In this document: positions 5,136 through 20,261 of the stretch, one piece after another
Layout: every line of letters starts with the position of its first letter
Numbering within the stretch: the first letter of the stretch is position 1
From: a virus
Taxonomy: Duplodnaviria; Caudoviricetes
Reading direction: 5' to 3' (one strand)
IMG/VR virus record: IMGVR_UViG_3300035392_000113
Span: 1-28,255 of that record
DNA: 28,255 nucleotides
Translations under genes and position numbers: made by a program
Notes under the pieces: model-generated
Told to the model about the DNA's origin: nothing
The model's database searches: none
The model's input: the letters and a program-made list of their open reading frames with translations, nothing else

Positions 5136-5635
5136 TATACGTACACTCCCCATCGGGGTATCATCGTAATTATGTGGTCGGCGGCGGTGGTACTAAAGGC
5201 TTGATTCGTACCATTATAAACAACAGGCTGAACGTAACGCGCTATGGGGTAAATAGGCAATGTAATATAAAGCGTAGTTGTTACGGCATCACAAGCAATA
5301 AAGCCCAACTGAGTGAATTGAGGGGATTTTGCTAATAATGTAGCCCCTGCAATTGAGGTAGCGACCTCAGTATAACCGCCACTTCCCGTCCCTGTTAAGG
5401 CATTAGCCCATACTAAATAGAGATTAACAAAAGTTCCTGCGTTTGGGGCAACGGCGAATTTCCACGTAAAATGAAGTGCCATCTCACGAGGATAGCCCCC
5501 ATTACTCCACAAATCGGCTCTTGCTCCAATACAGGCGGTGGCAGCCGCTAATGACGTTAAGTTCGCCATTCCATACGTACCGCCTGACGGTTTCCACGTT
5601 ACGTTAGTCCCTTCTACGATTACCTCTTTACTCAT
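5135..5635 (-). CDS. Putative virion structural protein
   Basis: 166 aa, Thr/Ala/Gly-rich beta-type composition, GGAGG RBS, coupled to neighbours. Confidence 0.7.
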   Translation of the reverse strand: MSKEVIVEGTNVTWKPSGGTYGMANLTSLAAATACIGARADLWSNGGYPREMALHFTWKFAVAPNAGTFVNLYLVWANALTGTGSGGYTEVATSIAGATLLAKSPQFTQLGFIACDAVTTTLYITLPIYPIARYVQPVVYNGTNQAFSTTAADHIITMIPRWGVYV

Positions 5636-11722: not shown

Positions 11723-11751
11723 ATTATACCATACTTATCTCAATTTGTCAA
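11723..11751 (-). promoter_or_regulatory. Consensus sigma70-type promoter
   Basis: TTGACA (11751-11746), 17 bp, TATAAT (11728-11723). Confidence 0.9.
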
Positions 11752-11811: not shown

Positions 11812-11840
11812 TTGTCAATAGGGGTAAAGTATGGTATAAT
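11812..11840 (+). promoter_or_regulatory. Sigma70-type promoter, divergent from the previous one
   Basis: TTGTCA, 17 bp, TG-extended TATAAT. Confidence 0.75.
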
Positions 11841-11869: not shown

Positions 11870-12142
11870 ATGGCATTTAACTCATATCGTAAGGCTTATA
11901 ATTACAATTTGGTGAAGGCAACCCCATTAACTCAGTTAATGGGTTATGAGGTGGGATTAACAATATATCAAGAAATTGTGGGTGAGGTGTTGCGATTAGT
12001 GAGAGGTAACGTATTTGTACAAAGTGATGAAATCGGTAAAAAAGTGAAACGGGAAATGGTTCGCTTTGAACAATATCTAATTACTCAACTCACTATAAAT
12101 GCAGAATATGAATTTATGACCACTTATGAGATTAGGTATTGA
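11870..12142 (+). CDS. Hypothetical protein
   Basis: 90 aa, GAGGT RBS, own promoter. Confidence 0.75.
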   Translation: MAFNSYRKAYNYNLVKATPLTQLMGYEVGLTIYQEIVGEVLRLVRGNVFVQSDEIGKKVKREMVRFEQYLITQLTINAEYEFMTTYEIRY

Positions 12143-12167
12143 CAAACTAAAATAGTTATGTTATAAT
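12139..12167 (+). promoter_or_regulatory. Consensus promoter for the sRNA-tRNA transcript
   Basis: TTGACA (12139-12144), 17 bp, TATAAT (12162-12167). Confidence 0.9.
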
Positions 12168-12281: not shown

Positions 12282-12355
12282 GCGGACGTGGCGGAATTGG
12301 CATACGCGAGTGGCTTAGACCCACTATTTTGCAGGTTCGAGTCCTGCCGTCCGTA
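12282..12355 (+). tRNA. tRNA-Leu (anticodon TAG) with short variable loop, CCA not encoded
   Basis: Acceptor GCGGACG/CGTCCGT, Leu-type D arm GCGGAATTGGCATACGC, anticodon arm AGTGG-CTTAGAC-CCACT, variable ATTTT, T arm GCAGG-TTCGAGT-CCTGC, discriminator A. Confidence 0.9.
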
Positions 12356-12380
12356 CTGAGGGTGAGAGGCAGATATGGCT

Positions 12381-13173: not shown

Positions 13174-13202
13174 TTGACAAAGTAATTTATCTATGGTATG
13201 AT
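13174..13202 (+). promoter_or_regulatory. Sigma70-type promoter
   Basis: TTGACA, 17 bp, TG-extended TATGAT. Confidence 0.85.
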
Positions 13203-15656: not shown

Positions 15657-16481
15657 ATGAATTACTATTGCCCTTATTGCTCAAATTACACGCCTATCAC
15701 CACCCCTATTCTTGCAGGTGGTTTATCAATGACTTGTATCCATTGCAAAAACGAAGTGATGATTTTGTTACATCCTGTCAACAGTGAGTTTTTCGGATTA
15801 ACAGACCGATTAAAGAAAATTTTGTTACAAGACGGAATTACTACGTTAACTCAATTATTGGAACAAAAAGATACTCTAACCTCAATTAAAGGGATTGGTG
15901 AAAAGAGTCTCACTGAGATTGATAATTTTTTTGAAAGTATGGGTATTGAAAAAACACCATCACTATTCGAAGGGTTTCTCAACAGTGGTGATGTTTTAGT
16001 TATCTGTGGTAATACAAGGATTGATACGGGGATTAAATTAATGAGGGCGGCGGTGTTAGCGGAATCATTTTTGGGTTTTCTCTGCACTAAGCAAAATGAA
16101 GTATTTTACATTACAGATGATAAAACCCCATTGTTGAATTATTCTTTTAATGAGAGTGAGATAACTCAAATGAATGAGCATTTGATATTACTTGACGGAA
16201 TATCCGATGACAGTATTAGTAAATTTTTAGCACTTTTAAGTCGTCCCATCAATCTCATTTGTCTTGACATCAACGGTTTTGTAGAGAATCAAAAACACCT
16301 ACTGTCTAATCTCAAGACAGAATGTCTCAAGTTCAGAACAGTAGGTGTTATTATCATCAATACTCCCTCTGCGTGGTTGATTGATAATGCAAACTCTGTT
16401 ATCTTTTGTGAAGATACAGAACTTAAATTATATAAAGATAATCAACTTACAGTATTTTCCAACGGTGAAACTGTGGAGTAA
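15657..16481 (+). CDS. Zn-ribbon + RNA polymerase alpha-CTD-like + degenerate RecA-like domain protein
   Basis: CPYC...CIHC; FGLTDRLKKILLQDGITTLTQLL...IKGIGEKSLTEI resembles alpha-CTD/HhH; LFEGFLNSGDVLVICG...VFYITDD...LICLD resembles an AAA_25/RecA fold without GK[ST]. Confidence 0.65.
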   Translation: MNYYCPYCSNYTPITTPILAGGLSMTCIHCKNEVMILLHPVNSEFFGLTDRLKKILLQDGITTLTQLLEQKDTLTSIKGIGEKSLTEIDNFFESMGIEKTPSLFEGFLNSGDVLVICGNTRIDTGIKLMRAAVLAESFLGFLCTKQNEVFYITDDKTPLLNYSFNESEITQMNEHLILLDGISDDSISKFLALLSRPINLICLDINGFVENQKHLLSNLKTECLKFRTVGVIIINTPSAWLIDNANSVIFCEDTELKLYKDNQLTVFSNGETVE

Positions 16482-16983
16482 AGAGGCATTTTTCCCATAA
16501 ATCTTTGCGCTCATAGTAAGTATTTAAGCCTTCAACCGTAAAATGCCCTGTTGCCCAAAACAGTTCGTCAATCGGTGTTATCCAATGCCCTGCTTGATAT
16601 TCTTCGTATCTCAGAATGTCATCTTTTTTGATGATACCACCATCTACGTCAACAGGGGCAACGTATTCAAAACCAATGACGGTTACAAGCGTATCAGGGG
16701 AACATTTATTAAACTCACAGAAAAAAGTTATAAACTGTTCAGGTGTCCATTTAGGGAATCCTTCCGCAATTACGTCTTGTTGAGTAATTAAATTCAACGG
16801 CTCATACCGATGTTCAGTCACTCTTATTTGACATAAATAACGAACCTTTTCCCCTTTCTTAAGCCCCTTGTCAATGGCGTTTAATATCTGCCCCACTTTC
16901 ACCTTATCCCACCCTAAACGGCGGGTTTTTGTTTTTGTACGGTATTCTATCTGAGGTGTAGTTTTGTGAAATGAAATGTTCAT
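16447..16983 (-). CDS. ASCH domain protein with C-terminal extension
   Basis: ISF...KTKTRR, EPLNLITQQDVIAEGF...FITFF...VTVIGFEY are ASCH/PUA-like motifs. Confidence 0.85.
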   Translation of the reverse strand: MNISFHKTTPQIEYRTKTKTRRLGWDKVKVGQILNAIDKGLKKGEKVRYLCQIRVTEHRYEPLNLITQQDVIAEGFPKWTPEQFITFFCEFNKCSPDTLVTVIGFEYVAPVDVDGGIIKKDDILRYEEYQAGHWITPIDELFWATGHFTVEGLNTYYERKDLWEKCLFTPQFHRWKIL

Positions 16984-17170: not shown

Positions 17171-17205
17171 ATAAAGGGTAGCTCAAAATTAGCTACCCTT
17201 TATTT
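17171..17205. terminator. Terminator hairpin downstream of the tmRNA-like gene
   Basis: ATAAAGGGTAGCT-caaaatt-AGCTACCCTTTAT inverted repeat. Confidence 0.75.
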
Positions 17206-17209
17206 CTAG

Positions 17210-17379
17210 TGGAGATGGCGGGTATCGAACCCGCGTACTACAGTCCTCACTAACTCATTCGCTGTAAACCATTAACCCTTCGCAAAACGGTTAATTTACC
17301 TTGAATAGTAGTCGCTATCGTGTTGCTGTGCGCCTTCGTGATAGCCTCTTAGACCGTAGGCGAAAACCATTTCATCCCC
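17210..17379 (-). ncRNA. Miniature tmRNA-like RNA (170 nt)
   Basis: 5' GGGGATG-AAATGGTTTTCGC-CTACGGTC ... GACTGTAG-TAC-GCGGG-TTCGATA-CCCGC-CATCTCC-A: acceptor stem with G3:U pair, stemless D loop, P2-like helix, T arm. Confidence 0.8.
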
Positions 17380-17393
17380 TAAATAATAAAACC

Positions 17394-17422
17394 ATTATAC
17401 TCTAATCATCATAGTTTGTCAA
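17394..17422 (-). promoter_or_regulatory. Consensus promoter for the tmRNA-like gene
   Basis: TTGACA (17422-17417), 17 bp, TATAAT (17399-17394). Confidence 0.9.
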
Positions 17423-17985
17423 ATAGGGTGAGTATATTTGAGCAATTCGAGTAAACGGGATTCAGGGTGTTTCCCTAACAGTTTCTTGAGTTTCTCATAA
17501 GTTTCGGTGGGGAAGGTTAAATTGAGTATCATTTCATCGGTAGGGACTTCGGGGGTGATGTTAGCGTCAGCTAACAATTCGTCAATCTCTTCGGGAAAAT
17601 AATAATCTGAAACATCTAAACCTTGAGTGATGTCGGCGTAAAGATTGGGGACATTTAGGGCATAATCAACTTTGGCGGTTTGATTGTCTGCGATGGTCAT
17701 TAAACGGCCTGTGGGGGTGTTAATGTCCACGTCAGTTCGTTCTATAATGACCATTTCATCGCCCTCTGTTTCAATGACCATTATCTCAGTAACGCCCATT
17801 TCTAAAGCGGCAGCGAAGGTTTTATTACCGCCCATAATGTTATCATTCATATCAAATAACAAAGGACGGGTAAATCCGTAATCGTTGATGGATTTTTTAA
17901 TGAGGGTTTTGCCTCGTTCAGTGCCATCGTTGTAATTGTTTGTGTCGGGTGTAACTTGAGTGACGGGTATGATTAAGTGAGACAT
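17419..17985 (-). CDS. ParB/Sulfiredoxin-like N-terminal domain protein (paralogue 2)
   Basis: NYNDGTERG..LIKKSI..YGF.RPLL.D....IMGGNKT...IADN pattern of phage ParB-like proteins. Confidence 0.75.
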   Translation of the reverse strand: MSHLIIPVTQVTPDTNNYNDGTERGKTLIKKSINDYGFTRPLLFDMNDNIMGGNKTFAAALEMGVTEIMVIETEGDEMVIIERTDVDINTPTGRLMTIADNQTAKVDYALNVPNLYADITQGLDVSDYYFPEEIDELLADANITPEVPTDEMILNLTFPTETYEKLKKLLGKHPESRLLELLKYTHPI

Positions 17986-18560
17986 AATTTTATAATGGCC
18001 TCTTCGGGAGTTGCAGCAAGTTTCGCTAACTCTGTTGTTACGAAAAAATATTCTTGTGAAGTAAACTCCAAATGAAATGATTTGTCTTTACTTGTCGCCC
18101 CCCCACCTTTTTTGGGTTCATCGGTTTCAGGTTGAATTTCACCAATAATTGCCACCAATTCCTCTTCGGTGAAATAAGGGGTTAAATCTAACCCCTTTTC
18201 GATATGATATAACAATTCCTCATTGGAAACGGCGTAATTGATTTCGTGAGTACGATTATCGGCTAACTTGAGTAACTGCCCCATTTCCGATTTGATACTC
18301 ACATCTTTACGGCGAACCGCTATTAACTGAGAACCATCACTTTTAACAAAAATAGCCTTCGTGAGATTAGAGGCAATCGCCGCACTGACCGTTTTATTAC
18401 CCCCCATCATCACTCTGTTACCATCAGCAAAACCACCACGCCCTAACCCCAATGTCGTAATGGATTGCGTTAATAAATGTTCCCCACGCATTGTCCCCTC
18501 ATTCAAATTGTGGTCATCTAAAATAACGGTACTTAAATCATCATAAACTATTTCGTCCAT
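17973..18560 (-). CDS. ParB/Sulfiredoxin-like N-terminal domain protein (paralogue 1)
   Basis: NLNEGTMRG..LLTQSI...GLGR...MMGGNKT...LADNRT; aligns with its neighbour. Confidence 0.75.
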   Translation of the reverse strand: MDEIVYDDLSTVILDDHNLNEGTMRGEHLLTQSITTLGLGRGGFADGNRVMMGGNKTVSAAIASNLTKAIFVKSDGSQLIAVRRKDVSIKSEMGQLLKLADNRTHEINYAVSNEELLYHIEKGLDLTPYFTEEELVAIIGEIQPETDEPKKGGGATSKDKSFHLEFTSQEYFFVTTELAKLAATPEEAIIKLCLT

Positions 18561-18868: not shown

Positions 18869-19052
18869 CAATACTCCGTTTAACTTTAATTTTATGGGGC
18901 GATTATGATACCGTACTCCACGCCGATTCCAAAATCGGAATGAAACATTTCATCAAAAACCACCCACCCAAACTATTCGATTTTTGGGAAATATAATCAT
19001 CGTTATACCATAGTAATAACCTTAAAGTTTGATGAAAATAGGATTTACCCTA

Positions 19053-19081
19053 TTGACAAATACCAATAACTATGGTATAAT
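19053..19081 (+). promoter_or_regulatory. Consensus promoter heading the non-coding region
   Basis: TTGACA (19053-19058), 17 bp, TG-extended TATAAT (19076-19081); near-copy of the promoter at 832-878. Confidence 0.9.
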
Positions 19082-19196
19082 GGTATACATAAGAGAGTAA
19101 GTCAAACAGGAAGTGAGACGTATGAGCCACTACTGATTGAGGGTAGAGACCAAACTACCGTAAACAAAGAGCAAGTTGATAAACTACTCACTCATT

Positions 19197-19288
19197 GAAT
19201 AAACAAGAATAGACCTGAGCAACGTCACGAAAAGGCTTACCGAATGAGAATAAACAAGAATAGACCTGAGCAACGTCACGAAAAGGCT
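19197..19288 (+). repeat. 41-bp exact direct repeat, two copies
   Basis: GAATAAACAAGAATAGACCTGAGCAACGTCACGAAAAGGCT at 19197-19237 and 19248-19288. Confidence 0.95.
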
Positions 19289-19298
19289 CACTCAAGAA

Positions 19299-19433
19299 CT
19301 AAGGGGCGGCACTCTTAGAAAGACCTTAAGGGCAGTTTAGACTTTAAGGCACAAGACCTCAGAGGCGGCACTTTGAGGCAGAACAATACCCTTAGCGGCA
19401 TAAGGGTCAAAGACCAACGGGCGGCACTGTTGG
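19299..19433 (+). repeat. Array of five hairpins, four with a GCGGCA loop
   Basis: Hairpins at 19299-19318, 19324-19349, 19357-19378, 19388-19407 and 19414-19433. Confidence 0.9.
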
Positions 19434-19738
19434 CAATTAACAATAGCATATCGGTGCGATAGAGGGGATTAAGAGGTCGGTAACTCTCTCCCGCTAATGG
19501 AGCGATTTCATCAGGGCGCAGGATTTAATAGAGTTAGCGGGAGTAATAAAGTCCCGCTAACTCACTCAAGAATATGGTGGGTCATTTAATAAGCTGAGGT
19601 ACGCTTCGGTGAGGCAAGATGATTGACGGTACTTAGTTTCGATTTGTTGATGACTAAGGCAGAATCAATAATGGTGGTTCGAATCCATTCCCCGCTTGAC
19701 TAACATTTACACCTTAAACGGTTTACGATATAATTAAC

Positions 19739-20047
19739 GACTTAACAATCTAGTAACAATTAGTGATAGGATAATTGTGAAGTTGTTGTTAAGTCAGCTA
19801 ACATATTATTTTGATAACGGTTAAAAGAGAAATTATGTACGGGTGATGGGACTCTTCACAAACAGGGGGATATAGCGAACCCTTGAGATAACCGAAGGCA
19901 GAAACGGACTTCACTCATAGTATAAAAAGGCTAGAATAATTCTCCATTTGCTACGACCTCTATGTGCGAATAATGATGATTAGCATTTAATGACTTAATA
20001 ATCTAGTAAACGTAACTGATAGATTACGGCGAAGTTGTTGTTAAGTC
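19739..20047 (+). repeat. Duplicated ~57-nt hairpin module
   Basis: GACTTAAYAATCTAGTAA...TGATAG...GAAGTTGTTGTTAAGTC at 19739-19795 and 19992-20047. Confidence 0.9.
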
Positions 20048-20232
20048 ACTCACGAAACAACCTTTAACGAAAGTATAATTTTTCATCAGGTACATTACGG
20101 TAAGACCCATAACCGTACAGTTATAGTGGCGGGGGCATTAAGATGACATAATACCGTAATATAGTATACAAAGCTAGAATGATGAAAAATGGGCATCAAT
20201 ACCTCTTAAAATCAAAGGTCGTTAAGTGAAAC

Positions 20233-20261
20233 AACACCCTACTCAACTGAGTAGGGTGTTT
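20233..20261. terminator. Terminator hairpin between the ncRNA region and the convergent operon
   Basis: AACACCCTACTC-aact-GAGTAGGGTGTT-T. Confidence 0.7.

Follow-up and report, generated by a model that had tools for sequence, protein, structure and literature searches.

The stretch of DNA analyzed here (hereafter the window; 28,255 nt) contains a 170-nt gene for a one-piece RNA that is a conserved phage derivative of tmRNA with an alanine-type tRNA-like domain (TLD), and this RNA on balance probably acts as an alanine/SmpB competitor of the host tmRNA in the manner of the phage-borne DS6A RNA. A hairpin is predicted to lock the start of the message, which makes the competitor role likely. 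The window represents a whole linear IMG/VR virus record with an estimated completeness of 14%, whose genes encode terminase, portal-like, head protease/capsid, tail, ParB-like, and DnaC-like proteins and a dCTP deaminase; the RNA gene is flanked by a ParB-like gene on one side and by a second tRNA-like gene on the other. All nine sequencing runs listed with the stretch derive from microbial-mat DNA (six studies; four runs contain at least half of its words), and no RNA data set is among them. The gene is not an assembly artifact, since its sequence recurs without differences in one spanning contig of run X1 and an X6 contig is identical over positions 17195-17429.

An earlier note on this DNA had proposed a miniature tmRNA-like gene of 170 nt on the minus strand at 17379-17210, and the Rfam model RF00023 corroborates it with an end-to-end match over positions 17379-17207 (55.3 bits; E value, 2.4e-19; gathering cutoff, 47). 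ARAGORN, the other search program suggested there, missed the RNA with default settings and called only a tRNA-Leu in the window; lowered thresholds yielded noise only. In a near-identical phage (L002/L005/L091; scans led by proteins) the RNA is identical to that of the window, and a phage of about 80% identity (L003/L004/L092) retains it as a 173-nt version, referred to below as L004, which was confirmed by an exact contig of run X2. The L004 RNA scores 44.9 bits and thus falls below the RF00023 gathering cutoff. This class of RNA escapes ARAGORN, and Rfam catches such RNAs only marginally. The gene and its immediate signals comprise the following features:

17394..17422, minus strand: 12/12 match to the sigma-70 promoter consensus; overlaps the ParB-like gene upstream at its stop codon; retained in L004 at 5444-5472.
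17210..17379, minus strand: tmRNA-derived one-piece gene, 170 nt, with G1 at 17379 and the discriminator A at 17210; CCA is not encoded.
17373..17379, minus strand: 5' strand of the acceptor stem with G3; its A5-U68 pair is typical of Anaerolineae tmRNA.
17360..17372, minus strand: 13-nt stemless D loop; equivalents of U17, C18, and G19 retained, C instead of A20.
17351..17359, minus strand: 5' strand of helix 2a; one two-sided and three one-sided changes in L004.
17314..17345, minus strand: hairpin 1, in the place of pseudoknot 1; 6-bp stem with one two-sided change and 20-nt purine-rich loop (17/20 identical in L004).
17250..17312, minus strand: long arm (hairpin 2 plus its base), predicted in both variants; contains the resume-like motif and the putative tag frame; divergence near neutral.
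17271..17295, minus strand: 7-bp stem in the long arm, in which putative tag codons 4 to 6 pair with the resume-like site at its positions -7 to -1; one two-sided and one one-sided change; unpaired probability, 0.02.
17247..17288, minus strand: putative tag frame, from the Val codon at RNA nt 92 over 12 codons to TAG TGA; no Ala-Ala end; 13 codons and the same TGA in L004.
17238..17246, minus strand: 3' strand of helix 2a, pairing with 17351..17359 (9 bp).
17211..17237, minus strand: linker, T arm, and 3' strand of the acceptor; U for G333, A334 retained; 28 to 30 nt identical to the 3' ends of some Anaerolineae-class tmRNA genes.
17171..17203, minus strand: downstream 13-bp hairpin, terminator-like with a weak U tract; absent in L004.

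All elements of the TLD are present, i.e., a 7-bp acceptor with G3:U70 and A73, the stemless D loop, helix 2a, and a 5-bp T arm, and the two usual GAC motifs read GCC and TAC. This anatomy, including the ACTA end, agrees in every point with the earlier description, and an alanine identity combined with the lack of an Ala-Ala-type tag is supported at the sequence level. The 170-nt RNA has a fold z score of -3.25 (1 of 200 shuffles equally good), and its 104-nt interior is predicted as two arms in both variants, with the pk1-pk4 pseudoknot ring absent; these folding predictions include no pseudoknots, proteins, or ribosome.

For comparison with chromosomal genes, a mixed set comprised 25 tmRNA matches in 28 genomes, of which the 23 with ARAGORN calls were used and 2 were dropped. 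A second set contained 44 distinct chromosomal tmRNA genes from the class of genome G068 (record titled Anaerolineae), based on 30 loci with the top Rfam scores and 15 loci chosen by their likeness to the 3' end of the query; 3 genes are shared with the mixed set, and one uncalled locus, one miscall, and duplicates were dropped. The acceptor sequence of the phage RNA is that of 42 of the 44 Anaerolineae-class genes and is found in the mixed set (n = 23) only in three Chloroflexota-titled members. Its last 28 to 30 nt match 208 of 401 genomes of the Anaerolineae class, several at 100%, and 0 of 201 genomes of the class of G061 (Sporomusa). An Anaerolineae host is therefore likely, judging from this signature at the RNA ends, and the phage dCTP deaminase has its nearest named relatives in Anaerolineales and Anaerolineaceae (3 with an organism name among the 12 members listed). 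The unpublished genome G424 provides the basis for none of these statements. The ACTA end, which had been pointed out as a deviation from ACCA, is correctly described but is no defect: 6 of the 44 Anaerolineae-class genes end likewise, and only 14 of the 44 encode ACCA. The chromosomal tmRNAs of this class are 350 to 426 nt long. A likeness of the phage RNA interior to the Anaerolineae pk1 failed against shuffles (26 to 169 of 200 equally good), and the interior is, as far as its sequence can tell, without recognizable homology to host tmRNA.

Among the SmpB contacts listed in PMC8363625 are U17, C18, G19, and A334, all of which are retained in both phage variants. Two positions deviate in both, with C for A20 and U for G333, and both A20 and G333 are invariant in the chromosomal genes (23/23 and 44/44; 3 genes shared). 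Unlike the two variants, the DS6A RNA also has A20. The C at position 20 may weaken SmpB binding.

Comparison of the window with L004 argues that the RNA is maintained for its structure. The surroundings of the gene differ by four unrelated ORFs, one of which encodes a GNAT acetyltransferase, and at the sequence level the RNA is therefore a conserved island amid changing neighbors. Between the two RNAs 137 of 177 columns are identical, compared with 36 of 63 fourfold sites in the adjacent gene, and identity ranges from 31/32 in the 3' part of the TLD and 32/37 in the hairpin 1 region to 44/70 in the distal arm. The 41 consensus pairs comprise 33 unchanged pairs, 5 with one-sided and 3 with two-sided changes, and none is broken. 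Of the predicted helix 2 and interior pairs of the window, 34 of 41 can still form in L004; random placement of the 31 substitutions kept 28.4 on average and as many as observed in 137 of 20,000 trials. The compensatory changes, the lack of any broken pair, and the conservation amid changed surroundings point to structural selection on the RNA, for which two sequences provide good but limited evidence: only two variants are known, their contig names carry one data set number, and the covariation amounts to three two-sided changes. The earlier note had named a decayed host ssrA fragment as the finding that would speak against it, and such a decaying scrap is rejected by the presence of both halves and the selected structure.

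Scans for further relatives by flanking and core proteins and of genomes yielded no types other than those of the window and L004. Among 50 of the 78 terminase-related records searched with RF00023, the RNA was likewise present only in these two types; the three other matching records represent tRNAs or T-arm matches (one inspected). A paired profile of the 5' and 3' ends, applied to 206 loci, recovered only window-type copies, but it was insensitive and missed L004, too. In cultured phages and plasmids, no match spanned more than 31% of the RNA.

A resume-like motif that matches the consensus U85-A86-R-N-Y|G given in PMC2481249 is present in both variants, with the Val codon at nt 92 in the window and nt 95 in L004 and an in-frame stop in each; chromosomal resume codons lie at nt 89 to 98 in 22 of 23 genes of the mixed set and at a median of nt 90 in the Anaerolineae-class set. 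The 12-codon frame that starts at 17288 and ends in TAG TGA was found as previously described, and the distance from the motif to TGA is preserved between the variants despite two offsetting 1-nt indels. The putative tag peptides have 4 of 12 residues in common and end in Arg-Met-Ser and Leu-Ser-Glu, and an Ala-Ala-type degron end is present in no candidate frame of either variant. Apart from this stretch of 12 or 13 codons, no reading frame or peptide is conserved. The 32-codon frame at 17348-17253, which had been highlighted before, is indeed open; it is at chance level (1,669 of 5,000 shuffles), and in L004 a stop interrupts it after 10 codons. An alternative resume site, an Ala codon in the hairpin 1 loop (nt 49), is exposed but was rejected, as A86 is lost in L004 and the frame lengths differ.

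The earlier observation that the resume-like context lies within a hairpin is borne out by both variants, in which positions -7 to -1 are predicted to be paired; where the motif carries an A-to-G change, the partner strand carries the corresponding U-to-C change. The unpaired probability of the site is 0.02 to 0.03, compared with chromosomal medians of 0.75 (n = 23; 1/23 below 0.1) and 0.72 (n = 45; 0/45 below 0.1), and opening of positions -6 to +9 costs 10.1 to 10.2 kcal/mol, compared with chromosomal medians of 5.2 and 5.7 and maxima of 8.3 (n = 22) and 7.4 kcal/mol (n = 43). Pairing around the resume codon has been proposed in PMC2481249 to abolish activity by blocking a frame-setting ligand; PMC13692277 raises the possibility that uS3 unwinds the RNA downstream of this codon. 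The earlier note had offered two readings, a tagger that does not lead to degradation and a decoy, and the decoy is now the better supported of the two: a compensatory change accompanies the conservation of the hairpin in which the motif is buried, and conservation does not extend to the long open frame.

As a competitor, the RNA would be transcribed from its strong consensus promoter, processed by RNase P and 3' trimming, and completed by CCA addition. AlaRS would charge it, and the charged RNA would bind SmpB and EF-Tu, enter stalled ribosomes, and transfer alanine. Efficient resumption of translation on the phage RNA would not follow, because the bases at -7 to -1 that are to be read by SmpB are paired. 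The RNA would thus compete with the host tmRNA for SmpB, EF-Tu, and stalled ribosomes without adding a degron, and as a net outcome fewer stalled products would be tagged and proteolyzed by the host during infection. This whole chain, from charging through SmpB/EF-Tu binding to competition, is what we infer from two precedents and the features above: in vitro, a TLD alone with SmpB is capable of ribosome entry and polyalanine synthesis (as cited in PMC2481249), and the TLD-only RNA of DS6A is reported to inhibit tmRNA in Escherichia coli (PMC11915505, PMC4131195). An SmpB gene was not found in the three partial phage records. Several observations weigh against a competitor. A pure decoy has no need of a 104-nt insert and does not account for the conserved loop of hairpin 1; only 59 to 70 of 5,000 shuffles place the motif at its canonical position together with an in-frame stop, albeit by post hoc criteria; the C at position 20 might impair SmpB binding; the hairpin just 5' of the gene in L004 may reduce read-through; and the case draws on two variants and on fold predictions that omit pseudoknots, proteins, and the ribosome.

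A functional minimal tmRNA is unlikely. Hairpin 1 would replace pk1, pk2 to pk4 would be gone, and hairpin 2 would open on the ribosome, so that translation would resume at nt 92 with the Val codon and terminate immediately ahead of helix 2a, releasing stalled phage proteins with a short polar non-degron tag. There is only a small chance that the RNA represents the smallest natural working one-piece tmRNA, pseudoknot-free and hairpin-gated with a polar tag of 12 to 13 residues, which would free stalled ribosomes and spare the products host proteolysis. The consensus motif occupies the usual chromosomal place in both variants, its distance to TGA is kept, pk1 is described as reducible to a hairpin (PMC4236655), and pk2 to pk4 as dispensable in vitro (PMC3985003). 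By criteria set post hoc, after inspection of the sequence, the motif at nt 88 to 98 with at least eight codons and a stop arises in 59 of 5,000 shuffles of the window RNA and 70 of 5,000 of the L004 RNA, but the motif at that position is found in 311 and 310 and the motif alone in 2,269 and 2,291, respectively. Moreover, a compensatory change elsewhere in the hairpin offsets both substitutions within the motif, a sign that pairing is under selection, and the only 41 nt from the codon to helix 2a together with a helix 2 of 9 bp would make a tight loading ring. The shortest message-bearing tmRNA in the alignment of 2005 has 250 nt (PMC1168896).

The RNA could also be a message-less alanine donor, an improbable reading in which repeated TLD-SmpB entry would eject broken mRNA and add at least one alanine, as proposed for CDS-less organellar tmRNAs, which amounts to rescue rather than inhibition. 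Polyalanine synthesis from TLD and SmpB in vitro (as cited in PMC2481249) and the conservation of CDS-less tmRNAs in mitochondria and some plastids reported in PMC11915505 are consistent with it, but no stop codon would be reached, so that release requires another factor, the sole tested phage TLD RNA was inhibitory, and the bulky insert is not explained. Decidedly improbable is a decoy or spare, together with the neighboring anticodon-less tRNA-like gene, against host defense nucleases that cut tmRNA or tRNA; this second gene is indeed conserved next door, and for some defense systems tmRNA binding via SmpB-like domains is predicted in PMC11090510, but no host genome or defense system is linked to the phage. 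Least probable is an attachment-site relic or attP whose last 28 to 30 nt would serve integration into host ssrA, with the remainder left over, since the complete 5' half, the paired helix 2a, and two hairpins with compensatory changes are kept, phage genes lie on both flanks in both variants, and a tyrosine integrase is found in 0 of 3 records (7 to 24% complete), against which stand the 100% identity of this end to tmRNA genes of several Anaerolineae-class genomes and the frequency of integration at ssrA noted in PMC11915505. An additional attP function may exist beside another role.

With respect to known systems, phage tmRNAs (79 unique) are described in PMC4131195 and PMC11915505; in the latter, the class "standard, no CDS" comprises 9 of 97,179 sequences. 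One of the closest parallels is the RNA of mycobacteriophage DS6A (JN698994, 28478-28560), which is likewise phage-borne and one-piece with G3:U70, a 13-nt D loop, and no recognizable degradation tag. Both RNAs share a 7-nt spacing between GG and the helix (chromosomal genes, 1/44 and 0/23) and a non-G at position 333 (0/44 and 0/23), and both end in ACTA. These oddities suggest that the RNA has converged on phage TLD RNAs or is related to them, with DS6A as the one comparator; a likeness between the hairpin 1 loop and the DS6A loop was not beyond chance (284 of 2,000 shuffles). The DS6A RNA has 83 nt and a 20-nt helix 2 loop, whereas the phage RNA, at 170 nt, carries a two-arm insert of 104 nt as well as a resume-like site; with 170 to 173 nt and its conserved structured insert, it exceeds the DS6A-type size (about 80 nt, little beyond the TLD). 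With the standard tmRNA of Anaerolineae it has in common the RF00023 match, the acceptor, the motif position, and, in some genes, the 3' 28 to 30 nt; it differs in its half length, the lack of pseudoknots, the 9-bp helix 2, the paired motif, and the lack of an Ala-Ala tag. The phage RNA is therefore a plain member of neither the DS6A-type class nor the standard tmRNAs.

Full-length phage tmRNAs, e.g., of cluster C and M mycobacteriophages, Streptomyces phages, and Bacillus phage G, are likewise phage-encoded near tRNA genes, but they are annotated with Ala-Ala-type tags, and their similarity to the phage RNA is limited to the last 28 to 53 nt. CDS-less organellar tmRNAs, given as about 189 nt in jakobid mitochondria and about 65 bp in Mallomonadaceae plastids (PMC11915505, PMC1168896), also retain the TLD without a usable tag frame; they are the sole tmRNA of the organelle and mostly permuted, whereas the phage RNA would be present alongside an intact host gene. 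Inhibition of the host RNA by a tag-less phage tmRNA has already been published (DS6A; PMC4131195, PMC11915505), and in the portions of the literature consulted a 104-nt structured insert is unreported. No phage tmRNA form of 150 to 200 nt was found in this literature, whose scope excluded most subscription papers, and the tables and full database of PMC11915505 may contain such forms.

The phage RNA represents a natural intermediate between the full tmRNA (about 350 to 420 nt) and TLD-only RNAs (about 80 nt), and its two variants with compensatory changes bear on the minimal ring size that permits resumption. It is also relevant to the question of why phages carry tmRNA-like genes, be it rescue, protein sparing, or sabotage of host quality control. 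As a decoy, the RNA would moderately extend a phage strategy that is already published and apparently common; as a functional tagger, it would reset the minimal tmRNA.

Of the promoter and terminator previously assigned to the gene, the 12/12 promoter holds, as one of four such sites within 10 kb. The terminator does not: the hairpin at 17203-17171 is real (z = -4.86) but has no U run on the strand of the RNA and was not called as a terminator. In L004, a 57-codon ORF and a 13-bp hairpin intervene between promoter and RNA, and the arrangement of promoter, RNA, and hairpin is confined to the window. The L004 hairpin lies directly 5' of the RNA gene and may lower read-through. Near-perfect sigma-70 promoters with common flanks form a family in the window (11723-11751, 11812-11840, 12139-12167, 13174-13202, 17394-17422, and 19053-19081), and the 38-nt promoter motif occurs in many further contigs of the mat runs, which hints at more members of this phage group there.

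The second tRNA-like gene (window, 17101-17008, minus strand; promoter, 17130-17102; L004, 6584-6667) was missed by default ARAGORN and in the window also by Rfam. It has a 7-bp acceptor without G3:U70, a 4-bp D stem, a T arm, a single long arm that lacks a normal anticodon loop, and almost no variable loop; it is 86% conserved in L004 with a net 9-nt change in loop length (fold z scores, -4.1 and -6.3), has no relative in cultured phages, and is possibly another tRNA mimic. Three extra tRNA-type genes (L004, 13796-14209, minus strand) accompany a tRNA-Leu(TAG) identical to that of the window, where tRNA-Leu (12282-12356, plus strand) is the only gene of this type. Directly upstream of the RNA, two tandem ParB-like/methyltransferase-N-terminal paralogues are located at 17419-18560 (minus strand). 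The region at 18900-20240, about 1.3 kb without ORFs of at least 50 amino acids on one frame set, is 81 to 91% identical in L004, exceeding many genes. Its 12/12 promoter (19053-19081, plus strand) precedes 625 nt that fold about 5 standard deviations better than 40 shuffles, and it contains 44-nt and 31-nt repeats and a T-arm-like end near 19680-19700; it has no Rfam match and is a candidate for a large structured noncoding RNA. An orphan protein of 274 amino acids (15657-16481, plus strand) with N-terminal Cys pairs shows a weak match to the RNA polymerase alpha-CTD (E value, 5e-5, just under the cutoff) and is a possible transcription effector. Finally, at 16943-16960, within the gene for a protein of 178 amino acids, a short patch resembling a compensated frameshift distinguishes the window from L005 and run X1.
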